From: Lachnospiraceae bacterium | GTDB taxonomy: Bacteria; Bacillota; Clostridia; Lachnospirales; Lachnospiraceae | Assembly (NCBI GenBank): GCA_016282745.1 | Contig: JAEELL010000052.1 | Span: forward strand, 1-12,654 | Reading direction: 5' to 3' | Length of the DNA: 12,654 nt | In this document: one piece after another, positions 1 through 12,654 of the stretch | Position numbering within the stretch: position 1 is the first letter of the stretch | Layout: each line of letters starts with the position of its first letter | Notes under the pieces: model-generated | Told to the model about the DNA's origin: nothing | Seen by the model: only the letters and a program-made list of their open reading frames with translations | Database searches by the model: none | Translations under genes and position numbers: made by a program

Positions 1-1049
1 TATAGAGGGTGGAAGTGCAGGAAGAAAGATTGGAATCCTTGATAGGGATGTATGCTTTGGAAATAAATTATGCACTTTCAATTCTAAAGAGATTGTTAAT
101 AGATATATTTATTACTATCTCCAAAGCTATGAGTTTAAGGCATTTTTTATGGATAATATGTCCGGAATTATTGGCGGCGTAAGTATAAAAAAACTTAAAG
201 AGCTTCCAATTCCGGTGCCTACTGTGCCTGAGCAAAAAGCAATAGTTGCCAAGATAGAGGAACTTCTACCTTATGTAGACCGCTATGCCGAGGCTTATGA
301 GAAGCTGGAACAGTTTAATGCCAAGTTCCCGGAGGATATGAAGAAGTCTATCCTTCAATATGCAATTGGTAGAGCAGAGAGCTGAAGAAGGAACGGCTGA
401 AGAACTGTATCAGCAGATTAAGAAAGAAAAGCATAAGCTAATACAGGAAGGAAAAACAAAGAAAGGAAAGCCTTTTGCGGAAATCTTGGGGGATGAGATA
501 CCATTTGATATTCCAGAGAGTTGGAAGTGGGTTAGATTGATTGATGTAGTAGTGGATAAACCTACAAATGGTTATTCGCCTAAAGGTGTTGATTATGTCA
601 CGAACTATAAGAACCTTACACTGACAGCAACTACCGCAGGATATTTTAAATATGATGCGTTTAAATATGTTGATATTTCAGGAGAAGAAGCAGAAAAATA
701 TTGGTTAAAGCATAATGACATATTAGTTCAGCGTAGCAATTCGAGAGAATTAGTAGGAACCAGTTGTATATATGACGGTAACGATGACAAATATATATAT
801 CCTGACCTGATGATGCGGTTTCACACCATGCCAAACATATGTGTACAGTATATTGATTATGTATTGAAGTCGCCCTTTGTAAGACAATATTATTCAAAAA
901 ATGCGACAGGAACTTCAGAAAGCATGCCTAAAATAAATCAGGCAATAGTTTCATCCACTTTAATTCCGTTGCCACCTTTGGCGGAGCAATATCGAATTAC
1001 TGCAAAGATCGAAGAACTTCTGCCTTATTGCGACAAACTGAATAAGTAG
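1..1049 (+). pseudogene. hsdS: Type I restriction-modification specificity subunit HsdS. The 5' end lies outside the window and the gene is interrupted by a frameshift in the central conserved region (ORF fragments 2..385 and 360..1049).
   Basis: Frame 2 is open from nt 2 and reads ...GNKLCTFNSKEIVNRYIYYYLQSYEFKAFFMDNMSGIIGGVSIKKLKELPIPVPTVPEQKAIVAKIEELLPYVDRYAEAYEKLEQF...SILQYAIGRAES*. After the stop at 383-385 the homology continues in frame 3 (QLVEQRAEEGTAEELYQQIKKEKHKLIQEGK..., a second target-recognition domain, then the distal conserved repeat LIPLPPLAEQYRITAKIEELLPYCDKLNK*). The two near-identical LP..P..EQ..I..KIEELLPY motifs are the hallmark conserved repeats of HsdS. The frame switch falls inside the conserved ...LQYAI(QGK)LVEQ... 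helix around nt 355-375. Confidence 0.8.
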
Positions 1050-1057
1050 TATTTATA

Positions 1058-1093
1058 CGGAGATGGGAACTTAGTCCATCTCCGCTATTTTTA
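1058..1093 (+). terminator. Rho-independent terminator downstream of hsdS
   Basis: Perfect 9-bp stem CGGAGATGG (1058-1066) / CCATCTCCG (1076-1084) with a 9-nt loop, followed by CTATTTTTAT. It starts 9 nt after the hsdS stop. Confidence 0.65.
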
Positions 1094-1290
1094 TGTATTT
1101 ATATACTGAAGCACGGGAACAATCCATAATACGAGCCATCTCAGATATATTGATATTGCCTGTCTTATACATCTGATAATATTTCCAGAACTATTTTTTA
1201 AATTCAAAATATTATGATACATATAGGTTGCATTAAGTATGTCAAAAAGCAATAGCGAAAATCGGTGGAAGTGCTCGATTTTTCGGTATT

Positions 1291-1392
1291 TGAAAAAAAG
1301 TAAAAAATAATGGACTTTTTGAAAATCCACTTCAAATGCCCGAAAATACTGATAAAGTACATTTTATAAAAAGTGTACTTTATTTTTATTAT
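1291..1392. repeat. Left copy of a ~100-bp direct repeat (partner at 9664-9766, about 93% identical). Contains a palindrome AAAGTACA-N12-TGTACTTT.
   Basis: Direct alignment: tgaaaaaaagtaaaaaataatggactttttgaaaatccacttcaaatgcccgaaaatactgataaagtacattttataaaaagtgtactttatttttatt versus the 9664-9766 copy. There is one single-base indel, two mismatches (tcc/cac) and three changes in the palindrome spacer. It embeds TTCAAA(1331-1336)-16nt-TAAAGT(1353-1358) and an inverted repeat AAAGTACA (1354-1361) / TGTACTTT (1374-1381) followed by a T-run. Confidence 0.85.
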
Positions 1393-1609
1393 AGTCAAAT
1401 AAATAACCATAAATAAAGTTCATTTTTAATGCTTGCCAAATGATAAATGATAGAATAATAAAGTAAAATTATAAATTCTAAATATCCATATATATTTTTC
1501 CCAATTTCGAAATAAAATATGATAGAATTATCTTATAAATTAATGATCGGATAAAGCAATAAATTTATACAACTTTCAAACATTCGTCTCTAGGATAGGA
1601 GGAATGCTT

Positions 1610-3520
1610 ATGACTATATATAAATGTAAAATGTGCGGTGGGAATCTAGAAATAAAAGATGGTGATTTAACATGTACATGCGAGTATTGTGGAACTAAAC
1701 AAACCTTGCCCAAACTCACCTCTGAAATAAAAGCCAATCTTTACGACCGAGCAAATCATTTTCGTAGAAATAATGATTTTGACAAAGCCATGAGTATCTA
1801 TGAAAAAATTCTAAACGAGGATAAGACCGATGCAGAAGCATATTGGTCTTTGGTTTTATGTCTTTACGGAATCGAGTACGTCAAAGATCCTCAAACAGGT
1901 AAAATGATTCCAACTATTAACAGAACTCAGTACACATCTATCTATTCTGACGAAAACTACAAATCAGCAATTCATTACGCAGATTCTATGCAGAAATCCA
2001 TATATAAAGAAGAAGCAAAAACTATAGATTCCATACAAAAGAACATTCTGGAGATTTCAAAAAAAGAAGAACCTTTCGACATTTTCATCTGCTATAAAGA
2101 AACTGATGATAGTGGAAGAAGAACTCCTGATTCCGTACTTGCAAATGACTTATATCATCAGTTAACAATCGAGGGTTACAAAGTATTTTTCTCTCGAATC
2201 ACATTAGAAGACAAACTGGGCACTGCTTATGAACCGTATATTTTTGCTGCTCTTAACAGTTCTAAAGTTATGGTTGTAATTGGCACAAAACCTGAATATT
2301 TCAACGCAGTATGGGTAAAAAACGAATGGAGCAGATATCTCACTTTAATCAAAAACGGGGAAGATAAAACTCTGATTCCTGCTTATCGTGATATGGACCC
2401 TTATGATTTACCTGAAGATTTCAGTCACCTTCAGGCACTTGATATGTCTAAACTTGGCTTTATGCAGGACTTAATCCGAGGCATCAAAAAAATTGTAACT
2501 CAGAATACTATTCCACAAAACGAAAAAGTAATTAACTCAAATACTGATTTACAACAACAATTGGAAATGCTCCAACAACAATTAAAACAACAACAGTTGC
2601 AATCCAACAGCAATATAACTGCGTTACTTCAACGTGGGAATATGGCTTTGGAAGATAAAGACTGGAAAAAATCTGATGATTTTTTTGAAGAAGTGTTAAA
2701 TCAGGATGCCCAATGTGCTGAGGCATATTTAGGAAAATTACTTGCAAAAAACACTTCCACAACTTTCGACGAATACATTGATAGCATCATAAATAAATAT
2801 GATAAACCAGAAACAAAAATGATTGAAGTTTGTAAACCAAATCAAAATCACATTGAAAAAATAGCAAATGAATATTATATTCCAAGCTATTATGAAAAGA
2901 AAGATATAATAGCTGAATACTATAAATTTGATAGAACTATTGAAATAATTGATATAAATTCCATTTTAAAAAATAAAGATGATGCAATTAATCATATTAA
3001 GCAAGATTCTTTATTTAAGAGAACACAACAGTATGCCAACAATAAAACTTTAGAAATAATAAATTCAGGATTAGCAAAAATAAACGAGCATTATGAACAA
3101 AATCGTGAAACAGCTGAAAAACACAATAAAAATGAAATTTTCAATCTAACTGATAAATATAATAAACATATAAAAGCAACTGATGAAATAATAAAGAAAA
3201 ATAAGGTGAAAGCAATAGAACTTATGGAGCAAAATTATCAAAGAGCTATTGAAATGTTTAATATTGCAAACTCATTATGGGATTACAACAGTGTAAAAAC
3301 AGAATTTATGAATCTAGCAGAATACAAGAATGCAACTGAATTCATACAAAAATGTAACGATTATATAGAAATGTATAAAAAAAATCAAGTATATTATGAT
3401 CTTGAAAAAGTAATAGCTTTTGAAAAAAGCAAGAGGAAACAAGATACAGTAGTTATTGCTATTTTTATAGTAGTCCCGATTATACTTATATTAGTCATAA
3501 TCATTATAAATAATTTCTAA
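1610..3520 (+). CDS. Large TIR-domain protein (paralog 1). Layout: N-terminal zinc ribbon, TPR-like helices, TIR domain (about nt 2072-2495), a second TPR-like segment, Q-rich coiled coil, long helical region and a C-terminal transmembrane anchor.
   Basis: AGGAGG at 1597-1602 is 7 nt before the ATG at 1610. The track ORF starts at 1604 in the same frame, only 1 nt after the SD. CxxC...CxxC motif: KCKMCGGNLEIKDGDLTCTCEYCGT. TIR motifs: FDIFICYKETDDSG (box 1), GYKVFFSRITLEDKLG, IFAALNSSKVMVVIGTKPEYFNAVWVKNEWSRYL with a conserved Glu in the WxxNEW position. TPR-like segments AEAYWSLVLCLYGIEYV and LLQRGNMALEDKDWKKSDDFFEEVLNQDAQCAEAYLG. C-terminus VVIAIFIVVPIILILVIIIINNF is a hydrophobic helix. 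About 55-60% identical to the 6131-8536 protein across the first ~300 aa. Confidence 0.8.
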   Translation: MTIYKCKMCGGNLEIKDGDLTCTCEYCGTKQTLPKLTSEIKANLYDRANHFRRNNDFDKAMSIYEKILNEDKTDAEAYWSLVLCLYGIEYVKDPQTGKMIPTINRTQYTSIYSDENYKSAIHYADSMQKSIYKEEAKTIDSIQKNILEISKKEEPFDIFICYKETDDSGRRTPDSVLANDLYHQLTIEGYKVFFSRITLEDKLGTAYEPYIFAALNSSKVMVVIGTKPEYFNAVWVKNEWSRYLTLIKNGEDKTLIPAYRDMDPYDLPEDFSHLQALDMSKLGFMQDLIRGIKKIVTQNTIPQNEKVINSNTDLQQQLEMLQQQLKQQQLQSNSNITALLQRGNMALEDKDWKKSDDFFEEVLNQDAQCAEAYLGKLLAKNTSTTFDEYIDSIINKYDKPETKMIEVCKPNQNHIEKIANEYYIPSYYEKKDIIAEYYKFDRTIEIIDINSILKNKDDAINHIKQDSLFKRTQQYANNKTLEIINSGLAKINEHYEQNRETAEKHNKNEIFNLTDKYNKHIKATDEIIKKNKVKAIELMEQNYQRAIEMFNIANSLWDYNSVKTEFMNLAEYKNATEFIQKCNDYIEMYKKNQVYYDLEKVIAFEKSKRKQDTVVIAIFIVVPIILILVIIIINNF

Positions 3521-3599
3521 TATTATTATTTTTTTATTGTTCTACATATCAGAATAAATATATATGATAAATTAGTATTATGGAAAACGGTCGGATAAT

Positions 3600-3626
3600 T
3601 TGACAAAATACAACTACATTTAATAT
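3600..3626 (+). promoter_or_regulatory. Candidate sigma-A type promoter upstream of the 3686-9530 gene string
   Basis: TTGACA (3600-3605), 15-nt spacer, TAATAT (3621-3626). Perfect -35, acceptable -10, short spacer. Sits in the AT-rich gap after the first TIR gene. Confidence 0.3.
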
Positions 3627-3685
3627 CGTCTCTATACCCGGATTCAAATGAATTAATATACAAATGTAATGAACAAATAAGAATA

Positions 3686-3940
3686 ATGACTGAAAATGAA
3701 AAGAAATCCAAAACAAAAAAGAAAAAATTATTTATAAGTGCAATTACATTTTTATTATCATTCTCAATAATAATATATATCTATATTCCATTAAGATTAC
3801 TACAAGATAACTATAATAAATCAGTTAAACAATTAAATTCTATATCTGCTGGTTCATATCATACAGTTGCACTTAAATCTGATAGTACCGTTGTAGCTGT
3901 TGGTGATAATGAAGATAACCAATGTAGCATATCGGATTGA
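3686..3940 (+). pseudogene. Remnant ORF: N-terminal signal-anchor/TM segment plus a single RCC1-type blade. Probably a decayed fragment of an RCC1 propeller like the one in the 6131-8536 protein.
   Basis: ...SISAGSYHTVALKSDSTVVAVGDNEDNQCSISD* is near-identical in pattern to one blade of the downstream paralog (SRNHTIGLKSDSTVVSTGFNEYGQCAVSDWSGI). The ORF stops at TGA exactly where the paralog has TGG (the Trp of ...SDW). Similarity to the paralog ends after that point. No convincing SD precedes the ATG at 3686. Confidence 0.45.
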
Positions 3941-3994
3941 GAAAATATCGAATTTCCCAAAATGAAATAATTAAACAGAAGGAGGTACACAACC

Positions 3995-5404
3995 ATGTTA
4001 ATAAACAAAGGAAAAGATGATGAAATGATTAGCGTAATAAAACATGAGGGAAACAATGATGTATTCATTTGGAAACATCCAATTGAAGATTTCAATTATG
4101 GAACTCAATTAATAGTACACGAGAGTCAGGAAGCTATATTCTTTAGAGACGGACAGGCCTTGGACTTATTTGGTCCGGGACGTTATACACTTGAAAACCA
4201 GCAGTTACCACTTCTTCAAAATGCATACAATATTCCTTCAAACTCTGCTGATGCATTCCATTCGGAAGTTTATTTCATTAACAAAACTGTACAAATGTCC
4301 ATTAAATGGGGAACTCCTGACAAAGTGCGTTTTATTGATCCACTCAGTAATACGCCACTTGAACTTGGAGCATCAGGAACTATGAACTTACAAGTTCATA
4401 ATTCTAGAAAATTGCTAGTAAAATTAGTAGGAACAACATCCGGCATTGCATGGGACGATAGTAGCCAATACGCTAAGTCATTGCAAGAATCTTTCAGACC
4501 AATGATTGCAAATGCAGTAAAATCAAATCTTCCTGCGATTATTAAAAATGAATCAATTGATTTGTTAGAGATTGATGAAAAGTTAGATTTAATTTCAAAT
4601 GATTTGAAATTAAAGGTTAATCCTGAATTTGAGGAGTACGGTCTTACTATTCCACAGTTCTACGTAACCAATATCGTATTACCTGAAAACGACCCTAATT
4701 TCAAGAGAATAAGAGAACTACATACCATATCGCTCCAAACCAGAATGATTCAGGCTGAGGCAACAGTAAAATATGCACAGGCTGAAAGTGAAGCTAAGTA
4801 TAAAGCTGCGCAAGAGCAAAGTAAAGCAACTATTGAAGCAGCACATCGAGAAGCTGAATTACAAAGGCAATTAACAGAAACCGAGATTGCAAAACGTGAA
4901 GCTGAACGAAGAATTATTGCTTCACAGGCTGAAGCCCAAGCTGCAAAGTTGCAAGGCTTAGCAGAAGCAGAAGTAATGCGTGCTAAAGGTTATTCAGAAA
5001 AAGATGTTATTCAGGCTGAAGTTCAAAAAGCTTATGCCGAAGGTATTGGTAATATGGGACCTTCCATTTCCGGTGGTGGAGGAGGAAGTATTGTTGGTGA
5101 TGTTTTGGGACTGGGTGTTGGAATTGCAGCTGCAGGAAATATTGCCCCTCAAGTTTCAGAAATGATAAAAGGAATATCACCAAATAATAATTCAACTAAT
5201 ACCATTCCTACTCAACCACAGATAAACTTTGACACATGGCAATGTAGCTGTGGAAATGCAAATGCAACAGGAAATTTCTGCAACATGTGCGGAGTAAAGA
5301 AACCTGAGCAAAATATAATATCTGATGCTTGGGATTGCAGTTGTGGTAACACGGGTATTATCGGCAACTTCTGTAACATGTGCGGCAAAAAGAGAGGAGA
5401 ATAA
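3995..5404 (+). CDS. SPFH/Band-7 family protein (YdjI-like, Band_7_1 type). Central Ala/Glu-rich coiled coil, Gly-rich linker and two tandem C-terminal zinc ribbons.
   Basis: GAAGGAGG (3976-3983) upstream of the ATG at 3995. N-terminal region VFIWKHPIEDFNYGTQLIVHESQEAIFFRDGQALDLFGPGRYTLENQQLPLL... resembles the B. subtilis YdjI family (COG4260, 'putative virion core protein'). AEATVKYAQAESEAKYKAAQEQSKATIEAAHREAELQRQ...AEAQAAKLQGLAEAEVMRAKG is the typical SPFH/flotillin coiled coil. Two 24-aa repeats at the C-terminus: WQCSCGNANATGNFCNMCGVKKPE and WDCSCGNTGIIGNFCNMCGKKRGE (CxC..CxxC zinc ribbons). Confidence 0.75.
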   Translation: MLINKGKDDEMISVIKHEGNNDVFIWKHPIEDFNYGTQLIVHESQEAIFFRDGQALDLFGPGRYTLENQQLPLLQNAYNIPSNSADAFHSEVYFINKTVQMSIKWGTPDKVRFIDPLSNTPLELGASGTMNLQVHNSRKLLVKLVGTTSGIAWDDSSQYAKSLQESFRPMIANAVKSNLPAIIKNESIDLLEIDEKLDLISNDLKLKVNPEFEEYGLTIPQFYVTNIVLPENDPNFKRIRELHTISLQTRMIQAEATVKYAQAESEAKYKAAQEQSKATIEAAHREAELQRQLTETEIAKREAERRIIASQAEAQAAKLQGLAEAEVMRAKGYSEKDVIQAEVQKAYAEGIGNMGPSISGGGGGSIVGDVLGLGVGIAAAGNIAPQVSEMIKGISPNNNSTNTIPTQPQINFDTWQCSCGNANATGNFCNMCGVKKPEQNIISDAWDCSCGNTGIIGNFCNMCGKKRGE

Positions 5405-5407
5405 ACT

Positions 5408-6100
5408 ATGAGTAAAAACGAAATAAGAACTTATGTTGTTTTATGTATTATATTTATTGCATTTTCTTCAATTGCATTTGCTGCTCCATTTGATAAAAAT
5501 ACAGTCTTTGGGGTTGCCTATCTGTTTGGTGTATTATCAATTTTAGTACAAATTTATGTTTACAAAGTGGCATACATTGAAAAAGGTAATGCAAGAAGTG
5601 CATTCTACGGACTTCCGATAATCAATATTGGTCTAACATATATAACTGTGCAGATCATAGTTAGTATTATTGAAATGATAATAGCGAAAGAGATTCCTTT
5701 ATGGCCTGTAATTATCGCAAACGTAATTATTCTAGCAATAGCATCTGTTGGTTGTATTGCAGCCGAAACAGTAAGAGATGAGATTGTCCGACAGGACACC
5801 AATGATATACAAAACAAAGTCCAGATCATGAGAGAACTCCAATCCATTTCAGGTTCTCTTGTAACTCTGTGCACAGATGATAATCTGAAAAAAGAGATCC
5901 AAAAACTAGCTGATGAATTTCGATACAGTGATCCAGTTTCAAGTGAGCAAACCTCTGATCTTGAAAACCAGCTAAAATCAAAATTGAATGAACTTCAAAA
6001 ATTAATAAGCGCAGGCAACTTTGATAATTCAAAAGGGCTGTGTGCTGATATTCTATCAACATTAACTGAAAGAAACAGAATCTGTAAGAATAGCAAATAG
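5408..6100 (+). CDS. Integral membrane protein (about 4 TM helices) with a C-terminal cytoplasmic coiled-coil tail. Probably translationally coupled to the SPFH gene.
   Basis: SD AGAGAGGAG at 5391-5399. Start lies 3 nt after the SPFH stop. Four hydrophobic stretches (VVLCIIFIAFSSIAFA, FGVAYLFGVLSILVQIYVY, LPIINIGLTYITVQIIVSIIEMII, WPVIIANVIILAIASVGCIAA), then a charged helical tail ...KEIQKLADEFRYSD...LENQLKSKLNELQKLI. No family recognised from sequence. Confidence 0.75.
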   Translation: MSKNEIRTYVVLCIIFIAFSSIAFAAPFDKNTVFGVAYLFGVLSILVQIYVYKVAYIEKGNARSAFYGLPIINIGLTYITVQIIVSIIEMIIAKEIPLWPVIIANVIILAIASVGCIAAETVRDEIVRQDTNDIQNKVQIMRELQSISGSLVTLCTDDNLKKEIQKLADEFRYSDPVSSEQTSDLENQLKSKLNELQKLISAGNFDNSKGLCADILSTLTERNRICKNSK

Positions 6101-6130
6101 TTTATTAATAATTGAAGGGCGGATGAGCGT

Positions 6131-8536
6131 ATGGCAATACTTAAATGTAAAATGTGCGGTGGTGAATTACACTTTGAACCTGATTCAACCATCTGTGAAT
6201 GTGAATACTGTGGTACTAAACAAACAATCCCCAAAATCGATAACGAAAAGAAAATGACGCTCTACGAGCGAGCAAACAGACTTCGCTTCAATTGTGAGTT
6301 TGATAAAGCTGCAAGCGTATACGAGAATATTATTGCTGATTTTCACGAAGAAGCAGAAGCATACTGGGGATTAGTATTGTGCAAGTACGGAATCGAATAT
6401 GTCGATGATCCTGTAACAGCAAAAAAGATTCCGACATGTCACAGATCTTCCTTTGACAGTCTGGCTGACGATGCTGACTTTGAAATGGTTATGGAATATT
6501 CTGATTCGACAAGCAGAAAAGTATATCGTGAAGAAGCAAAAACAATTGAAAATATTAGGAAAAGCATTATTGAAATTTCAGGAAAAGAATCTCCTTACGA
6601 TATTTTTATCTGTTACAAAGAGACTGATGAAAACGGTGAGAGAACTATTGATAGTGTTATGGCTCAGGATATCTATGAGCAACTGGCATCGAAAGGTTAC
6701 CGCGTATTTTTTTCCAGAATATCTTTAGAGGACAAAGTAGGAGTAGAGTATGAGCCATATATCTTTGCTGCATTGCAATCGGCCAAAATAATGCTGGCAA
6801 TTGGCACTGATTATGACTATTTTAACGCTGTCTGGGTAAAAAATGAGTGGAGCCGCTTCTTAAAATTAATGGTTCACGATAAATCTAAGTATCTGATTCC
6901 ATGTTTCAAAAATATTGATGCTTTTGATATTCCAAAAGAATTTGCACGGCTTCAGGCTCAAGACCTCGGAAAAGTTGGTGCAATTCAAGATTTACTTCGT
7001 GGAATCGACAAACTTATTAAGCCGAACTCTTCAATAACAGAAAACAATGATACCATAAAAGAGACAATCCCTATAGTTGTCCATGAAGGCAAGAATTCTG
7101 ACGCTTTACTTAAGCGTGGAAAGATGGCATTAGAAGATAAAGATTGGATAAATGCCGAAAAATACTTTGATCAAGTATTAGATATGAATGCAGAGTGTGG
7201 AGAAGCATATTGGGGATTAGCTCTGGCAACAGCACAGTGTTCTGACAATGAAGAATTTTCGAAATTATATTCAAATGGTTTAGAGGAACTCAAAAAAAAT
7301 TTTCAAATTTTCACAAAATTTGAAAATAATTATAAAAGAGCAATTCAATTTGGAGGCAAAGAATTCTCTGATCTTATTAACAGACTTGAAGATTATAAGT
7401 TAGAGCAATTAGAATATGAGAAGACAATCCGATTGGAATTAGAATATTTGAGGGAAGATAGATTAAAATACTCAATATTATGTAATCAAATTATTACATC
7501 AAAAGGAAATATAACTTTGGCGCTAAAAAGTGATGGAAAACTATTAATCAGTGGAATGGCTTCATCAAATCAATATTCTAATTTGTTAACTTGGAAAGAT
7601 ATTATTATGATTTCAACAAGCAGAAATCATACAATAGGCTTAAAATCTGATAGCACTGTCGTTTCTACCGGATTTAATGAGTACGGACAGTGTGCTGTTT
7701 CTGATTGGTCAGGTATTATTCAAATTGCTTGTGGTGATAATTTCACAATAGGATTAAAAAACAATGGAACAGTTGTTTCCACCGGCAACAATCAATATGG
7801 ACAATGTAATATTTCTAATTGGTCTGATATCATTCAAATCGCTTGTGGTGATTATTTCACATTAGGATTAAAAAAAGACGGCATGGTCGTTTCTACAGGT
7901 TCAAACAAACATGGACCATGTAATGTTTCTAATTGGTCTGGCATCATTTATATTGCTTGTGGAGCTGATTTTTCATTAGGACTAAGAAGCGATGGAACTG
8001 TTGTCTCTACAGGTTACAACGAATCTGGGCAATGCAATGTTTCTGGTTGGCATGACATTATTTCTATTGCTTGTGGACTTGATCATGCAGTTGCAATTAA
8101 AGAAGATGGCAAATTAATCGCTACCGGCTCAAATATGAAGAAACAATGTAATGTCACCGATTGGTCTGATATTGTTTTTATTGCATGTAATGATACTAAT
8201 ACTATTGGCATCAAAAAAAATGGATTATTAATATCAACATCCAATGCCCCTAAATCATATAATTTTGTTGCTTATTATCAACATAAACAAAGTCTCTTTG
8301 GAAATATCGAAAACTTTAATAATTGCAAATTATTTAATAATATTTTAACTCTTGAAGTGGAAAGAAAAAAGGCTTTTAGCGATAGATTAAAGCATTTAAG
8401 AACCGAAAAAGAAAAACTCGAAAATAAATTGACTAATTTGCATGGTATTTTTTCATTTAGTAATCGTAAAATATTAGAAGAACAATTAGATGAAGTTGAA
8501 GATGAAATAAAAGTATTGAGTAACAGTAATCTATAA
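6131..8536 (+). CDS. Large TIR-domain protein (paralog 2). Layout: zinc ribbon, TPR-like helices, TIR domain (about nt 6593-7016), a second TPR-like segment, coiled coil, a 7-bladed RCC1-type beta-propeller (about nt 7493-8246) and a C-terminal coiled coil.
   Basis: N-terminus MAILKCKMCGGELHFEPDSTICECEYCGTKQTIP matches paralog 1. TIR motifs: YDIFICYKETDENG, GYRVFFSRISLEDKVG, IFAALQSAKIMLAIGTDYDYFNAVWVKNEWSRFL. Seven ~36-40-aa repeats of the form HTIGLKSDSTVVSTGFNEYGQCAVSDWSGIIQIACGDNF / TIGLKNNGTVVSTGNNQYGQCNISNWSDIIQIACGDYF / ... (RCC1/ATS1-like blade pattern). Ends with a charged heptad-like tail ...DRLKHLRTEKEKLENKLTNL...EEQLDEVEDEIKVL. Confidence 0.85.
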   Translation: MAILKCKMCGGELHFEPDSTICECEYCGTKQTIPKIDNEKKMTLYERANRLRFNCEFDKAASVYENIIADFHEEAEAYWGLVLCKYGIEYVDDPVTAKKIPTCHRSSFDSLADDADFEMVMEYSDSTSRKVYREEAKTIENIRKSIIEISGKESPYDIFICYKETDENGERTIDSVMAQDIYEQLASKGYRVFFSRISLEDKVGVEYEPYIFAALQSAKIMLAIGTDYDYFNAVWVKNEWSRFLKLMVHDKSKYLIPCFKNIDAFDIPKEFARLQAQDLGKVGAIQDLLRGIDKLIKPNSSITENNDTIKETIPIVVHEGKNSDALLKRGKMALEDKDWINAEKYFDQVLDMNAECGEAYWGLALATAQCSDNEEFSKLYSNGLEELKKNFQIFTKFENNYKRAIQFGGKEFSDLINRLEDYKLEQLEYEKTIRLELEYLREDRLKYSILCNQIITSKGNITLALKSDGKLLISGMASSNQYSNLLTWKDIIMISTSRNHTIGLKSDSTVVSTGFNEYGQCAVSDWSGIIQIACGDNFTIGLKNNGTVVSTGNNQYGQCNISNWSDIIQIACGDYFTLGLKKDGMVVSTGSNKHGPCNVSNWSGIIYIACGADFSLGLRSDGTVVSTGYNESGQCNVSGWHDIISIACGLDHAVAIKEDGKLIATGSNMKKQCNVTDWSDIVFIACNDTNTIGIKKNGLLISTSNAPKSYNFVAYYQHKQSLFGNIENFNNCKLFNNILTLEVERKKAFSDRLKHLRTEKEKLENKLTNLHGIFSFSNRKILEEQLDEVEDEIKVLSNSNL
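7493..8246 (+). repeat. Intragenic tandem DNA repeats (period about 114-120 bp, 7 units) encoding the RCC1-like blades
   Basis: Recurrent nucleotide blocks such as tggtctgatatcattcaaatcgcttgtggtgat...acagttgtttccaccggc...caatatggacaatgtaat repeat across the 3' part of the gene. Confidence 0.6.
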
Positions 8537-8552
8537 AAAATAGGAGAATTAT

Positions 8553-9530
8553 ATGGATATAAATATTAACAGCACTAAAAAACCACAAGTTTTATTATTA
8601 GGAAATGGATTGCTACAAGCATTTGGCGATACAGTTTCGTGGTCAGATTTAGTTAAACAAATGCATATAAATAGCAATGTAGACAAAGATCTATTATTTG
8701 CTAACATTCCTTTTCCTCTAGAAATAGTAATTAGAACAAACGATAACGTAGATACACAAATAAAAGATATAACTATATCTGACAATAATACATTTGCCAA
8801 CAAATCCGTCACTCCTGAATTATATAAACGCTTAGAGAAACTGATTGACTGTGGTTTTGATCATATTCTAACAACAAATTATGGATATGAAATAGAAGCA
8901 GTTGCAATTGGCAAAAATAGCATTAACGATTATTCTTTAACAAAAGGAAAAGATCATACTGATATTGTTAAAAGAGCTGAAAATAAATTCTATCTACATA
9001 CATATTACACATTCAACAACACAAATATATGGCACATTCATGGAGAAGGCAAAAATCCTAACAGTATTATCTTAGGACATTATTATTATGGAAATTTACT
9101 TACAAAATATAAAAAATATCTTGATTCTGTTGGATACAAATATGAATATCGTCAGCAACACAAACAACCACAAATAATAAATAGTTGGATTGACGCTTTC
9201 ATTTTAGGCGACATATATATTTTAGGCTTAAGTATGGATTTTTCAGAGTTAGATTTATGGTGGCTAATCAACAGAAAAAAGAGAGAAAAAGCAAATACAG
9301 GAAATATTTATTTCTTTGAACCAAATGATTGCAACACCTTTAATACAAAAATCGAATTATTAAAATGTTACAATGTCACAGTTGAGAATTGTAATATTTC
9401 ATTGATAAGAAATGATGATAATACAGAAAAGCCCGAATTGAATGTTAAGGAAAAAAATAATGAATTGTATAGACTGTTTTATGACGCGGCAATAGATAAT
9501 ATAATAAATAGGCAAAAAAATTATTTATGA
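8553..9530 (+). CDS. SIR2-like (SIR2_2 / ThsA-type) domain protein. It is a stand-alone SIR2 domain of about 325 aa with no SLOG or Macro domain.
   Basis: SD AGGAG at 8541-8545 is 7 nt before the ATG. Motif order matches ThsA/DSR-type SIR2: QVLLLGNGLLQAFGDTVSWSDLVKQM (Rossmann G-x-G loop, GNG variant), DHILTTNYGYEIE (TTNY(D) catalytic-Asn motif), NIWHIHGE (His motif), DIYILGLSMDFSELDLWWLI (GxSxxD motif), with ThsA-like spacing. Confidence 0.75.
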   Translation: MDININSTKKPQVLLLGNGLLQAFGDTVSWSDLVKQMHINSNVDKDLLFANIPFPLEIVIRTNDNVDTQIKDITISDNNTFANKSVTPELYKRLEKLIDCGFDHILTTNYGYEIEAVAIGKNSINDYSLTKGKDHTDIVKRAENKFYLHTYYTFNNTNIWHIHGEGKNPNSIILGHYYYGNLLTKYKKYLDSVGYKYEYRQQHKQPQIINSWIDAFILGDIYILGLSMDFSELDLWWLINRKKREKANTGNIYFFEPNDCNTFNTKIELLKCYNVTVENCNISLIRNDDNTEKPELNVKEKNNELYRLFYDAAIDNIINRQKNYL

Positions 9531-9560
9531 TTTTTTCTGTGGTTAGAATACAGCATTGTG

Positions 9561-9587
9561 CAAGTACAGAATCCTGTACGTTTTTTA
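9561..9587 (+). terminator. Probable rho-independent terminator after the SIR2-like gene
   Basis: Stem GTACAG (9564-9569) / CTGTAC (9574-9579), loop AATC, then TTTTTT (9581-9586). The stem is short and AT-rich, so only moderate confidence. Confidence 0.45.
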
Positions 9588-9663
9588 GCAAATAAAGTAC
9601 ATTTTTTCAAAATTCTAGTTTTTACTTTTCGATATGGAAATAGTAGAATAAAGTACATTTTTC

Positions 9664-9766
9664 TGAAAAAAAAGTAAAAAATAATGGACTTTTTGAAAAC
9701 ACACTTCAAATGCCCGAAAATACTGATAAAGTACATTTTTTCAAAAGTGTACTTTATTTTTTTATC
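9664..9766. repeat. Right copy of the ~100-bp direct repeat (partner at 1291-1392). Additional AAAGTACATTTTT half-sites lie just upstream at 9593 and 9650.
   Basis: tgaaaaaaaagtaaaaaataatggactttttgaaaacacacttcaaatgcccgaaaatactgataaagtacattttttcaaaagtgtactttattttttta. The same TTCAAA(9705-9710)-16nt-TAAAGT(9727-9732) and palindrome AAAGTACA(9728-9735)-N12-TGTACTTT(9748-9755) as the left copy. Confidence 0.85.
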
Positions 9767-9858
9767 ATCATAATTACTATAAATAATAAAGTCTATTTTC
9801 ATTATCCCAATACGCTGAAAAACATTTCAAAATAAAGTCAATTATCTTTATAATATAA

Positions 9859-9888
9859 TTGCAGACTGTTTTAGAAAAATGGTATAAT
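9859..9888 (+). promoter_or_regulatory. Strong sigma-A promoter with extended -10 (TTGCAG - 18 nt - TGgTATAAT)
   Basis: TTGCAG at 9859-9864. TG at 9880-9881. Perfect TATAAT at 9883-9888. A second TATAAT at 9854-9859. Confidence 0.5.
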
Positions 9889-10036
9889 AAAACCAATAAT
9901 AGCATGCACGGATATAAAAAAACTAAATAACAATTTTTATCTATTTTAGATATATTGTCTAAATAATCCAGTTAATTACATAGACCCAAATGAAAAAATA
10001 GCAATTGCACTTCCTTTATTTACACTGGAAGTTGTT

Positions 10037-10197
10037 GTGGTTTGTTTACTCTTGGCGTTGGCAGTTGTAGTATCAATTGCAATATTGTCAGATCCTGATG
10101 TTCAATATTCCATAAGAAATGTTATTAGAACAGTTGGTGCCAAGATAAAGGGAAAAATAGGAGATTTTATTATAGAAGTAGGTCGAGCGCTTACATA
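10037..10197 (+). CDS. Possible small hydrophobic/amphipathic peptide (about 53 aa, GTG start). Speculative.
   Basis: Frame opens after TAA at 9959-9961. GGAAG (10026-10030) is 6 nt before GTG 10037. Translation VVCLLLALAVVVSIAILSDPDVQYSIRNVIRTVGAKIKGKIGDFIIEVGRALT*, i.e. one TM-like helix plus a cationic amphipathic tail. Lies about 150 nt downstream of the strong promoter. There is no ATG start and it is below the ORF-track length cut-off. Confidence 0.2.
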
Positions 10198-10261
10198 AGC
10201 ACAGGCAAAAAAGAAAAATAATACGTATGAAAGACATCACATAGTAGCGCGAAATGAGCCT

Positions 10262-10489
10262 TTGGCAAAGAAATCTGAAAGGTTGATTAACCGTGTCGGT
10301 ATTTTTGTCAATGATTCTATTAATTTAGTGTATATTAAATATAATTTGCATAAACATATTCATACAAATTTATATCATGATATAGTATATGAATTGCTGT
10401 TATTAGGAAAGAATTCATATAAAAAGACATATGAAATATTGGGGTATATGAAAAATGTATTAAGAGCAGCTAGTGATGCAACACCATAG
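10262..10489 (+). CDS. Hypothetical small protein (75 aa, TTG start in track). Weakly supported.
   Basis: ORF with non-ATG start and no clear SD. Its stop (10487-10489) overlaps the AGGAGG of the next gene, so coupling is possible. No recognisable domain. Confidence 0.3.
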   Translation: MAKKSERLINRVGIFVNDSINLVYIKYNLHKHIHTNLYHDIVYELLLLGKNSYKKTYEILGYMKNVLRAASDATP

Positions 10490-10499
10490 GAGGATAAAA

Positions 10500-11084
10500 A
10501 TGGAATGTTTTAAATACTTATATAATCAATTTGTAGAAGCGATCAATTCTTGGAATGTAGATAAGATACGTGCAGTTTCTGTAATGGTATATTCAAACGA
10601 ATGTTACGTTTACAGAGGAGTTAAAAATTTTTTTGAGGTTTCTATCGGATATATTCCGTGTTTTGGTGATTCTGATGTATTAGACACTGATGCACTTATA
10701 GATCGAGAAGAAGTAAGTGTAGTGGTTGATCCTTATGAAAAAGAAGATATTGGAGCCGCAAAAGTTTGGGATTGGTTACACAGTATTAAAGTTGAAAATA
10801 TTGGATTTGAAGATGAAACTCAGATGTATGATGATGATTTAAATTATATAGGAAAAGGACCAAATGGATATTTTGAATTGTTGATGCTTGTTTCAGATGT
10901 AATGCGTGAGATACAGTCTAATGGAATTGTCAGTCAGAGATTTGATAAAACACCAGTGATTGTCCATGAGTTAAATTCTGCTTGGTATATAGAAGGTGCT
11001 ACTAGAAATGCAAATCCTAATGGAGAAGCGGACGAGTTTTTGGATTATCTAACAAATTTCTTTCAATATTGTAAAGAATTATAA
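10500..11084 (+). CDS. Hypothetical acidic cytoplasmic protein (about 194 aa)
   Basis: Perfect AGGAGG (10488-10493) is 6 nt before ATG 10500. The track ORF begins at 10473 in the same frame, but 10500 has the SD. Rich in D/E (…DSDVLDTDALIDREEVSVVVDPYEKEDIG…DETQMYDDDLNY…). No family recognised. Confidence 0.7.
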   Translation: MECFKYLYNQFVEAINSWNVDKIRAVSVMVYSNECYVYRGVKNFFEVSIGYIPCFGDSDVLDTDALIDREEVSVVVDPYEKEDIGAAKVWDWLHSIKVENIGFEDETQMYDDDLNYIGKGPNGYFELLMLVSDVMREIQSNGIVSQRFDKTPVIVHELNSAWYIEGATRNANPNGEADEFLDYLTNFFQYCKEL

Positions 11085-11184
11085 GCTTCTAGTGTATATT
11101 TGGAATTTTTAATACTATTCCTCTTTAAACATTAATATTTCCTATAATTATCTGATTAAAAAACTAATAATTCAAAAAATAAGT

Positions 11185-11222
11185 GAGTTGTAAAGTAAAT
11201 TTGGGAATTATCAATTTAGAGA
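11185..11222 (+). promoter_or_regulatory. 38-bp module AGTTGTAAAGTAAATTTGGGAATTATCAATTTAGAGAG, copy 1. Promoter-like -35/-10 plus SD, immediately before an ORF start.
   Basis: Identical 38-mer also at 12295-12332. Contains TTGTAA ... TATCAAT and ends in AGAGAG 2-6 nt before ATG 11226/11229. Confidence 0.5.
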
Positions 11223-11225
11223 GTA

Positions 11226-11504
11226 ATGATGAAGAGGAGGTCTGGAGAATTCTTTCTGCCGATTGTAATGAACAGCATTAGGTGTATCAAAAAATCACCG
11301 CAGTCCTATTCTTTAAATACAATTTGGTTACCATCAATACACACCGTATTTGGTACTGAATGGGATAATAAATTGACAGTTTATAATTATTATGGAGATA
11401 AAAGTATTCCTGAAATTTTTGATGATTACTATGATTTAGTAGATATCGATGAATTCCAAATTTATTATATGGGATTTATAATTAATCCAATAATATTGAA
11501 TTAA
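11226..11504 (+). CDS. Hypothetical small protein (about 92 aa). The start may be ATG 11229.
   Basis: ORF directly after the 38-bp module. Acidic C-terminal half (…IPEIFDDYYDLVDIDEFQIYY…). No recognisable domain. Confidence 0.5.
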   Translation: MMKRRSGEFFLPIVMNSIRCIKKSPQSYSLNTIWLPSIHTVFGTEWDNKLTVYNYYGDKSIPEIFDDYYDLVDIDEFQIYYMGFIINPIILN

Positions 11505-11524
11505 GTTTTTACTAGGAGGTTAAT

Positions 11525-12295
11525 ATGCAAAAATCAAAAGACATTTTTAAAATTATTTTTATTATACTAGCGTCCACTATTTTCGTTCTGATAGTCGGGT
11601 TGATTATTCTCATATTCATTTCTAAAAATGAGTACAAAAATACTTCCAAAGCATTAGAAGAAAATTATTATATTTATGAAGACAGTAATACCAATACTTG
11701 TATAGTGAAATGTAAAAATTTAATGTATGAGATTAATGGACATATGTATAAGCGGAAAGCACCGTATGTATATTTTATTGTCGACAACGAAATTTCTGAA
11801 AACCAACTATCAATTTTACATAACCATAACCACGGAAACTATTATATTTCCCCCCACAATGAGGATGAGAAAGATATTGCGGTTTCGGTATATGCGAGAC
11901 CAAATATCAATCAATTAACATTAGCACTGCGCAACAAAAAAACATCTTGGCCAATGAAAGAGAAATCGATAACTCTTAACAAAGCCAATGAATTTGTTGT
12001 TGAAATGCTGCTAAAAAACAAAATTAAATTCAAATATAATGATACTTCTTTAATATTTTTCTCTGAAAATGAATACAAAGTAGATTTGAAAGATGGAGCC
12101 AATGTAAATACTTATGACGTCATCGTAAAAGAACAAGAGGATGCTGCTCAAATATTAATTAAAGATCATGAAGCTGATATTTTAACCGGACAAATATATT
12201 TAAGCGGTTATGATTTCATTCTTGAAGCTGGCAAAAATAGTTTGGGAATTCCAAAAGGTGAAAAGTTGAAGTTTGACACTTTAGATTACGAATAG
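11525..12295 (+). CDS. Hypothetical membrane-anchored protein (N-terminal TM helix, then about 220 aa non-cytoplasmic domain)
   Basis: AGGAGG (11514-11519) is 5 nt before ATG 11525. N-terminus KIIFIILASTIFVLIVGLIILIFI is hydrophobic. The rest is a polar domain with no recognisable family. Confidence 0.7.
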   Translation: MQKSKDIFKIIFIILASTIFVLIVGLIILIFISKNEYKNTSKALEENYYIYEDSNTNTCIVKCKNLMYEINGHMYKRKAPYVYFIVDNEISENQLSILHNHNHGNYYISPHNEDEKDIAVSVYARPNINQLTLALRNKKTSWPMKEKSITLNKANEFVVEMLLKNKIKFKYNDTSLIFFSENEYKVDLKDGANVNTYDVIVKEQEDAAQILIKDHEADILTGQIYLSGYDFILEAGKNSLGIPKGEKLKFDTLDYE

Positions 12296-12332
12296 TTGTA
12301 AAGTAAATTTGGGAATTATCAATTTAGAGAGG
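12295..12332 (+). promoter_or_regulatory. 38-bp module, copy 2 (identical to 11185-11222). It begins at the stop codon of the preceding gene and ends 5 nt before ATG 12338.
   Basis: Exact 38/38 identity with copy 1. AGAGAGG serves as the SD for ATG 12338. Confidence 0.5.
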
Positions 12333-12337
12333 TCAGT

Positions 12338-12654
12338 ATGTACATAATAATACATAGACATGGAGAGGAAGAAAAATTTATTGGTACGTTTCAAGACAAA
12401 GACTTTGTAAATGAAGTCATTGAACGTTATAAACAATTTGAGGGATTCAATAAATATAAGGATGGATTTATTGTTCTTGAGCCACCTTATCGAGGTAAAG
12501 ACATTCTTCAAAAAAGAGAGGTTGTTTATATAGTTGTATCTTACGAGTGGGATTATTCCATTTGGGATGATGGAGACGAAGTAGATGTTAGGTATCATAT
12601 TATATTTGACAATGAAAAAAGTGCACAAAAATATCTTGATTCAATGAAAAAAGA
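12338..12654 (+). CDS. Hypothetical protein, 3'-partial (open to the window end, more than 105 aa)
   Basis: ATG 12338 with SD AGAGAGG. Open frame to 12654: MYIIIHRHGEEEKFIGTFQDKDFVNEVIERYKQFEGFNKYKDGFIVLEPPYRGKDILQKREVVYIVVSYEWDYSIWDDGDEVDVRYHIIFDNEKSAQKYLDSMKK.... Balanced, charged composition, unlike the overlapping minus-strand ORF 12281-12628, which is low-complexity F/I/L/K/N. Confidence 0.65.
   Translation, partial: MYIIIHRHGEEEKFIGTFQDKDFVNEVIERYKQFEGFNKYKDGFIVLEPPYRGKDILQKREVVYIVVSYEWDYSIWDDGDEVDVRYHIIFDNEKSAQKYLDSMKK

Follow-up and report, generated by a model that had tools for sequence, protein, structure and literature searches.

An SPFH-zinc ribbon protein and a four-transmembrane partner are encoded together with TIR proteins in a widespread cassette of gut and rumen Clostridia

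Introduction

SPFH proteins, among them the flotillins, the stomatins, HflK/C and YdjI, are ubiquitous, and their bacterial clients are few and debated. The present study concerns a pair of genes in a stretch of 12,654 nucleotides from a Lachnospiraceae bacterium (contig JAEELL010000052.1 of assembly GCA_016282745.1, positions 1 to 12,654), hereafter the window. The first gene (3995..5404, forward strand) encodes a 469-residue SPFH protein of the YdjI-like Band_7_1 type with zinc ribbons (ZnR). The second (5408..6100, forward strand) encodes a 230-residue protein with four transmembrane (TM) helices, for whose family we use the name TM4. TIR genes lie on both sides of the pair, TIR1 (1604..3520) upstream and TIR2 (6131..8536) downstream, both on the forward strand. 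An original prediction, made from the DNA without database searches, had taken the pair for an insertion between the two TIR genes of a TIR/SIR2 locus. Our analysis reveals that an SPFH-ZnR gene, a four-TM gene and one to five ZnR-TPR-TIR genes constitute a widespread three-part cassette of gut and rumen Clostridia, which is apparently undescribed so far.

Results

The SPFH-ZnR protein

The SPFH gene is preceded by an AGGAGG ribosome-binding site, and its SPFH domain, with beta/alpha secondary structure, occupies residues 31-232 (4085..4690, forward strand). The profile search that the original prediction had proposed returned Pfam Band_7_1 (PF13421) over these residues with E=1.1e-35 and 123.7 bits against a gathering cut-off of 24, which bears out the SPFH assignment. 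A weaker Pfam match was to Band_7 (PF01145, E=1.8e-7). PHROGs yielded only uninformative families of unknown function over the helical region (best E=7e-10).

The domain is followed by a long Ala/Glu-rich helix of the coiled-coil wall type (residues ~234-352, 4694..5050, forward strand), strongly conserved in the SPFH alignment and predicted helical by AlphaFold at residues 234-330 and 335-352, in a model of low overall confidence (pLDDT 57). Next comes a Gly-rich, glycine-zipper-like hydrophobic segment, ISGGGGGSIVGDVLGLGVGIAAAG (residues ~358-387, 5066..5155, forward strand; hydropathy 1.68). In an alignment of 25 homologues, which served for all statements on column conservation in this protein, its conserved glycines were G361-G363, G368, G372, G374, and G376. 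Since this segment is the sole weakly hydrophobic stretch in the hydropathy profile, the SPFH protein has no N-terminal TM helix.

The C-terminus carries two zinc ribbons of the form W-x-C-x-C-G-x8-C-x2-C-G, recognised from the sequence, the alignment and the underlying DNA repeat. Ribbon 1 (5237..5305, forward strand) comprises W415, C417, C419, C429, and C432, and ribbon 2 (5330..5392, forward strand) comprises W446, C448, C450, C460, and C463. Among the homologues, the Cys, Trp and Gly positions of the ribbons vary little or not at all, and the DNA coding for them forms a direct repeat at 93-nucleotide spacing (repeat family D5). A Pfam search with the ribbon tail alone gave noise only, with neither RanBP2 nor any zinc-ribbon family at threshold.

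For the SPFH protein, the protein collection contains upwards of 7,998 homologues, and identity to the best of them is 71-74%. They fall into a long form of ~590-690 residues, with ~115 extra N-terminal residues bearing five CxxC knuckles, and a short form of ~470-500 residues that lacks this extension; the counts were 43 and 34, respectively, over 77 loci. The short form is that of the window protein and of the relatives nearest to it. Two to five C-terminal ribbons were found in 40 of the 44 relatives in which they could be counted, and six in one homologue (P0045). The majority of relatives are richer in ribbons than the window protein. Proteins P0004, P0007, P0045, and P0081 are examples of extended or ribbon-rich homologues, beside which the window protein is a minimal form.

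In YdjI of Bacillus subtilis, a soluble protein of the Band-7 type, a low-complexity stretch is combined with a C-terminal zinc finger (PMC11237479; PMC8581546). The window protein, with no TM helix of its own, a low-complexity stretch and C-terminal ribbons, agrees with this described architecture, and the YdjI-like label of the original prediction stands at that level. The zinc-ribbon fusion had also been considered special to this locus. Because YdjI itself has a C-terminal zinc finger (PMC11237479; PMC8581546), such a fusion is not new but usual for the family.

The four-TM partner

The SPFH and TM4 genes are separated by three nucleotides: the stop codon TAA at 5402-5404 is followed by ACT and then by the ATG at 5408, and the two genes are taken to be translationally coupled. 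Both open reading frames (ORFs), their lengths, the two ribbons and the gap are as first read from the DNA. Hydropathy and AlphaFold (pLDDT 84) place the hydrophobic helices of TM4 at residues ~10-28, 33-51, 70-92, and 101-119, giving a TM region over residues 10-119 (5435-5764, forward strand). The partner had been expected to end in a coiled-coil tail. The four TM helices hold, but AlphaFold replaces the tail with a cytoplasmic helical bundle (residues 120-230, 5765-6097, forward strand), in which the fourth TM helix extends as far as residue 154 and three further helices come after it. The positive-inside rule predicts a cytoplasmic location for both termini. The alignment shows invariant cytoplasmic motifs (SxFYGxP, RDEIxRQD, RYSDPxSS, and ERNR) and invariant polar residues within the TM helices (Q48, Q82, S86, E89, and N105).

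The TM4 family is large. Word-indexed searching gave 428 homologues, and a profile search gave 3,236 cluster representatives at E<=1e-3. The best-scoring 150 relatives are nearly all stand-alone proteins of ~230 residues, with a few shorter fragments, and none of the relatives contains a Pfam domain. Sequence searches with TM4 found no relative in Pfam, NCBIfam, PADLOC or the Protein Data Bank (PDB), and comparison of the AlphaFold model with PDB folds gave no match (best Foldseek E=0.42). PADLOC and NCBIfam assigned the SPFH-TM4 pair to no system, the score of TM4 being far below threshold (16.4 bits against 292.55).

Co-occurrence of SPFH, TM4 and TIR genes

The locus was compared with three samples of relatives. 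For the first, 80 genome loci were fetched by SPFH similarity and all their ORFs were clustered; these loci come from Lachnospiraceae, Ruminococcus, Oscillospiraceae, Christensenellales, Solobacterium and others, and form one orthologous clade with SPFH proteins 55-75% identical. The second consists of metagenome loci drawn independently with the TM4 alignment. The third approached the cassette from the TIR side, where four homologues were looked at.

Only three families recur over the 81 SPFH-sampled loci: SPFH in 77 loci, TIR in 69 (111 genes) and TM4 in 62. The next commonest cluster, a small RHH-like gene, is present in 11. Of the 71 loci with at least 1 kb of downstream sequence, 63 contain TM4, which shares the strand of SPFH throughout and lies no more than 300 bp away in 58. 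Of the loci flanked by 5 kb or more on each side, 42 of 42 have a same-strand TIR gene no farther than 5 kb away; the TIR genes number one to five per locus, and 110 of 110 are co-directional with SPFH. The metagenome loci drawn with TM4 have SPFH upstream in every one of the 48 with enough sequence (within 300 bp in 46) and a TIR gene in 20 of the 20 with at least 5 kb of flank. From the TIR side, all four homologues adjoin a Band_7_1 gene and a ~230-residue gene, and two of these loci are minimal cassettes with TIR, SPFH and TM4 alone.

The functional link between SPFH and TIR suspected in the original prediction is thus supported by strict co-occurrence from all three sides (42/42, 20/20, and 4/4). 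Relatives carrying the SPFH-TM pair without a TIR gene were sought, and there were none among the loci with adequate flanks. The layout [TIR]n-SPFH-TM4-[TIR]n is conserved; therefore, SPFH-TM4 is the constant core of the cassette, and the idea that it had been inserted between two TIR genes has to be given up. The description of the locus as TIR/SIR2 survives in its TIR half only, as a SIR2-like gene is present in merely ~6-11 of 80 loci.

The TIR paralogues

TIR1 consists of an N-terminal ZnR, TPR, a TIR_2 domain, a helical region and a C-terminal TM anchor. This anchor, noticed in the original prediction, is a hydrophobic helix in the hydropathy profile at residues 617-635. TIR2, which begins 30 nucleotides after TM4, consists of ZnR, TPR, TIR_2, a further TPR, an RCC1 propeller and a helical tail. 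The TIR_2 matches of the two proteins in Pfam have E=2.9e-12 and 7.2e-11. The N-terminal ribbon of the family, KCKMCGG...CEYCG..QT.P, is almost invariant. A catalytic-type motif, W[VI]xNE[WF], lies near residue 234 in ~105 of the 111 paralogues, reads WVKNEW in both window proteins and aligns to WCxxE of a TLR TIR domain. Bacterial TIR domains are expected to be NADases, and the conserved catalytic-type Glu predicts such an activity here. The N-terminal modules of TIR1 and TIR2 have DNA stretches in common that are 70-73% identical. The RCC1 blades of TIR2 are encoded by at least four tandem 114-nucleotide units, 62-76% identical, at 7631-8200 (family D1); these units and the shared stretches together make up repeat families D1, D2, and D4.

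The C-terminal domains are variable: among 100 proteins, DUF6273 was found in 38, RCC1 in 29, CIDE-N in 5, LRR_5 in 4, and others besides. A TM helix precedes the C-terminal domain in 41 of the 111 paralogues, giving a receptor-like topology, and four are tail-anchored like TIR1, membrane proteins making up ~40% of the family. TIR1 stops directly after its TM helix, and its close relatives go on into an outside domain. The CIDE-N domains (best E=7.5e-13 in the five paralogues) belong to a type of apoptosis adaptor that is unusual in bacteria; other paralogues carry LRR_5 or WG_beta_rep (loci L002-L081).

Between TIR1 and the SPFH gene, an 84-residue ORF (3686..3940, forward strand) is a decayed remnant of a TIR paralogue of the TM-plus-RCC1 type. 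It retains a Lys-rich segment, the TM helix, the last RCC1 blade and the natural C-terminus, and a conserved Trp codon has become TGA nine codons before the ancestral stop. This debris of an RCC1-type paralogue therefore indicates turnover in the TIR array.

In receptor-binding proteins of gut phages, DUF6273 is known as a lectin-like target of diversity-generating retroelements (DGRs). In a single related lineage (L082-84 and L115), the TIR-TM-DUF6273 gene adjoining SPFH-TM4 ends in a variable region; its template repeat sits after a bAvd gene, and template adenines account for 11 of the 13 mismatched positions. In locus L083 the segments concerned lie at 12585-15194, 15327-15716, and 15752-15858, and the variable region at 15049-15173; there is no reverse transcriptase within 4 kb. 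We considered DGR diversification as a general feature of the cassette and rejected it, as the variable region and template repeat occur in one lineage (4 of 168 loci, plus strand searched), and such a pair is absent from the window.

Accessory genes and flanks

Downstream of TIR2 by 16 nucleotides is a gene (8553..9530, forward strand) for an accessory SIR2_2-like protein with an HIHG motif. The intergenic gaps along SPFH, TM4, TIR2 and the SIR2-like gene are thus 3, 30, and 16 nucleotides. The match of the SIR2-like protein to Pfam SIR2_2 is weak (E=0.0015, 19.1 bits against a cut-off of 24.5), as is the alignment of the HIHG motif with FAM118B (E=0.65). The family is present in 6 loci by clustering and ~11 by tblastn, always after a TIR gene for 800-900 residues. 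Accessories within the cassettes comprise two HEPN-like families (~14 loci), two SIR2-like families (11 loci) and DUF2971-like genes, and the RHH gene is another occasional accessory. The small HEPN-like proteins have 150-215 residues and an Rx4H motif (L013, 8733-9353; L004, 3884-4435; L168, 10105-10566), and one such family weakly matches HEPN pEK499_p136.

Terminator-like hairpins follow the upstream HsdS gene (1058-1084) and the SIR2-like gene (9564-9579); the sole other such match on the forward strand, at 1823-1850, is within the TIR1 coding sequence. A direct repeat of 95 nucleotides brackets TIR1-SPFH-TM4-TIR2-SIR2, with its left copy at 1293..1387 and its right copy, 96% identical, at 9667..9761 (forward strand). 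It occurs just twice, in the window as in the 16.5-kb source locus, where no copy is expected by chance, and holds an AT-rich, terminator-like hairpin (z=-6.1). These repeats may mark an island boundary or an att-like duplication.

Type I restriction-modification (R-M) genes lie directly upstream (window 149-1049; L001, 21-2141), namely HsdM and at least two HsdS-type ORFs, one HsdS-type gene being split into 149-385 and 360-1049. As these genes adjoin the block, the setting resembles that of a defence island. On the other side, a 75-residue ORF (10262-10489) has a weak match to an AHH (HNH/EndoVII) toxin nuclease (E=0.0012, below cut-off) and overlaps the start of a 203-residue ORF of no family (10473-11084). 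The two could be an orphan polymorphic-toxin tip and its immunity gene.

The flanks vary by genome. One context has LlaJI-type R-M, AAA_21, DUF2971 and a transposase, and another has PBECR4 amid housekeeping genes; serine recombinases or resolvases, AAA_25 and integrases occur at further cassettes. A scan of 150 flanking ORFs found GNATs, cupins and transporters alongside R-M, a type IV restriction endonuclease, Hhe, PDC candidates and SLFN/AlbA_2. The IMG/VR scan found the trio on one viral contig only; there the cassette (L168, 4413-13040) comes after prophage lysis modules with a GH25 lysin and a resolvase. In a Ruminococcus metagenome-assembled genome (L172, 1-12485), the cassette directly follows prophage tail, holin and amidase genes. 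These two positions suggest that the cassette is carried as prophage cargo.

Discussion

The original prediction had compared the pair with the ydjGHI module of B. subtilis. YdjG and YdjH recruit YdjI to the membrane, and YdjI then localises PspA (PMC11237479; PMC8581546; SamGHI preprint). The PspA-YdjGHI system thus resembles the cassette in having a TM-less Band_7_1 SPFH protein with a zinc finger, co-encoded membrane recruiters and another protein that is scaffolded. The partners are different: the cassette has a single four-TM protein with a helical tail, whereas YdjG combines ZnR, NTF2-like and TM parts and YdjH is a TPM protein. The comparison with YdjG and YdjH therefore fails, since TM4 is unrelated to either, and no PspA gene recurs. 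No member of the pspA, YdjG or YdjH families was found by Pfam in the window, in the annotated related loci or among the recurrent neighbours. Instead of PspA, the linked client genes are TIR proteins. Furthermore, the ribbons of the cassette protein are in tandem, with N-terminal ribbons added in many relatives, and the cassette is mobile and patchy, whereas PspA-YdjGHI belongs to the sigma-W stress regulon.

Other SPFH operons (stomatin/QmcA-NfeD, HflK/C-FtsH, and flotillin-YqiJ/YuaF) likewise couple the SPFH gene to a small membrane partner, and an oligomeric ring or cage in a membrane microdomain is expected for them and for the cassette. They differ in that the partner here is neither NfeD nor YqiJ/YuaF and matches no Pfam family, that the cassette SPFH lacks a TM helix or hairpin, and that its client is a TIR family, not a protease. 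The diversifying NTP-dependent conflict systems of multicellular bacteria (Kaur et al. 2020, PMC7159879) also join TIR to repeat or lectin-type sensor domains, and the DGR-diversified lectin-like C-terminus of one related cassette lineage is a further likeness. However, the cassette has no STAND or other NTPase core and its hosts are gut and rumen Clostridia; SPFH is mentioned in that paper (PMC7159879) in the reference list only. By way of analogy, animal Toll-like receptors in flotillin/raft microdomains have a single-pass topology, an outside repeat domain, an inside TIR and an SPFH-organised membrane, although no homology is implied beyond the TIR and SPFH folds. Our literature search for SPFH, flotillin or stomatin together with TIR, Thoeris, anti-phage or defence found nothing relevant. 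As PADLOC-DB 2.0 and NCBIfam likewise hold no SPFH component of a TIR system, the novelty suspected at the outset holds over these sources.

We tentatively favor, at somewhat less than even confidence, the explanation that the locus is a mobile, membrane-associated TIR conflict or defence cassette, most probably anti-phage, in which SPFH and the four-TM protein form the constant membrane module and the variable TIR proteins are the sensors. The precedent is YdjI, likewise soluble and of the SPFH-ZnR type, which TM partners bring to the membrane, where it scaffolds an effector. TM4, with its termini inside and a conserved cytoplasmic face, would tether the SPFH-ZnR protein, itself soluble, at the cytoplasmic surface of the membrane, as modelled on the role of YdjG and YdjH for YdjI. 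The SPFH protein would oligomerise through its SPFH domain and the ~100-residue helix into a ring or cage platform, and the TIR paralogues may dock on this platform, or be held in check by it, through their common ZnR-TPR module. Some TIR proteins would themselves be in the membrane, a few by a tail anchor, as in TIR1, and others as single-pass proteins whose C-terminal domain is outside. The variable C-termini (RCC1 propeller, DUF6273 lectin-like, LRR, and others) would recognise the trigger, whereupon the TIR domains would cluster and act as NADases, so that NAD+ would be depleted or a signal made, and growth would stop. In some loci, accessories of the SIR2-like or HEPN-like kind may contribute. 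The membrane-directed abortive infection first proposed for this locus would be compatible with such a scheme, in which the physical interactions, the NADase activity, the trigger and the defence role are what we infer, from domain content, operon coupling, strict three-way co-occurrence, variable flanks and the conserved TIR catalytic-type Glu as observed. A more specific form of this proposal, to which we give distinctly less than an even chance, is a widespread, unnamed TIR immune family of bacteria with an SPFH scaffold and a four-TM partner, whose microdomain would organise Toll-like, partly transmembrane TIR receptors, with a DGR-hypervariable outside lectin domain in at least one lineage.

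Several observations weigh against a scaffolded defence cassette. The polar TM residues of TM4 suit a passive anchor no better than they would a channel or effector. Contact of the TIR N-terminal module with SPFH or TM4 is likewise inferred, and ring or cage assembly is proposed by analogy only, because AlphaFold modelled the SPFH protein poorly (pLDDT 57). Long-form SPFH proteins showed no significant correlation with membrane-type TIR proteins (Fisher p=0.059). Since the sampled loci form one orthologous clade, the co-occurrence counts are not phylogenetically independent. Defence or mobile enrichment of the flanks is modest, many loci lying amid housekeeping genes, and no PADLOC, NCBIfam or PHROG system model fits SPFH or TM4.

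The polar residues of TM4 lead to a second explanation, unlikely in our view but the most serious of the alternatives, in which the TIR sensors would make an NAD-derived signal, as in Thoeris, and SPFH-TM4 would be the downstream membrane effector, for example a channel or pore. The TM4 bundle would bind the signal and an SPFH ring would control opening (compare stomatins and ion channels), resulting in membrane depolarisation. Like Thoeris, the cassette places TIR paralogues, one or more in number and with the catalytic-type Glu conserved, beside a constant non-TIR module; an occasional SIR2-like gene and, in some loci, a defence-island or prophage setting are further likenesses. The presence of one to five variable TIR genes beside one invariant module recalls multi-thsB Thoeris loci, minimal cassettes hold no other candidate effector, and the invariant polar TM residues and cytoplasmic motifs of TM4 could form a ligand site in a family that is large and uniform (3,236 cluster representatives). 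On the other hand, Thoeris has a SLOG or Macro effector where the cassette has SPFH and a four-TM protein, and the cassette TIR proteins are large and multidomain, with ZnR/TPR, sensor-like C-termini and often a TM helix. Pfam, PADLOC and NCBIfam detected no SLOG, Macro, SAVED or CARF domain in SPFH or TM4, and no structural relative of TM4 was found in the PDB. PADLOC gave no match for SPFH, TM4, TIR1 or the SIR2-like protein and no ThsA-type effector; none of the Thoeris models of PADLOC and NCBIfam matched, the only hit being ThcB4 at E=0.001 and 18 bits against a cut-off of 220. Besides, the TIR proteins could be NAD-depleting effectors themselves, and a membrane location in ~40% of them would be needless for a diffusible signal.

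That many TIR paralogues have a receptor-like topology is also what a non-immune envelope or surface-sensing module would show, with the TIR proteins as adaptors or NAD-metabolising signalling enzymes in an SPFH microdomain and the outside RCC1, DUF6273 or LRR domains as sensors of the host, of mucus or of adjacent cells. Receptor-binding proteins of gut phages use DUF6273 for lectin-like binding, YdjI/SamI has a role in the signalling of membrane stress and in differentiation (SamGHI preprint), and several loci lie amid housekeeping genes. We nevertheless regard this explanation as quite improbable: the distribution is patchy and mobile, with some cassettes at prophage ends or beside recombinases, and the HEPN-like, SIR2-like, CIDE-N and DUF2971-type accessories are typical of conflict systems. 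The conservation of the TIR catalytic-type Glu, and the turnover and decay of the TIR array seen in the window, also speak against it.

The same decay raises the question of whether the window copy itself is partly decayed and possibly non-functional. The Trp-to-stop remnant upstream of the SPFH gene, the end of TIR1 after its TM helix where close relatives have an outside domain, and an SPFH protein with two C-terminal ribbons only and none at the N-terminus would all agree with this. However, 34 of the 77 loci have the short form of SPFH, as do the nearest relatives, tail-anchored TIR proteins recur (four in the set), and the SPFH, TM4, TIR2 and SIR2-like genes are intact and tightly coupled, with their motifs conserved. 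A partly decayed, possibly non-functional copy appears quite improbable. Finally, that the pair is an independent housekeeping YdjI-like membrane-stress module, merely beside or inserted into a TIR/SIR2 locus, can be practically discounted, largely by the co-occurrence counts: its Band_7_1 membership, its YdjI-like architecture and a G+C content slightly higher at 4001-6500 (0.35-0.38) than in neighbouring stretches would suit such a module, but co-occurrence is strict in three independent samplings, the flanks are variable, and no PspA, YdjG or YdjH is among the recurrent neighbours or Pfam-annotated contexts.

Biological significance

A membrane-associated TIR cassette with an SPFH-TM4 core, as favored here, would bear on several questions. 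An SPFH protein that is genetically locked to TIR proteins offers a defined and testable client for a bacterial SPFH scaffold, and the cassette would give a function to a very large orphan four-TM family, with 3,236 cluster representatives and no Pfam model. The cassette would also add a membrane-organised branch to TIR-based immunity. Its family is abundant in Clostridia of the human gut and rumen, where phage defence is poorly mapped, and receptor-like TIR proteins with outside-facing domains would make sensing before or at phage entry possible. If SPFH-scaffolded TIR immunity is true, the cassette would be the first case of SPFH as an obligate part of a defence system and would constitute a prokaryotic parallel to raft-organised TLR signalling.

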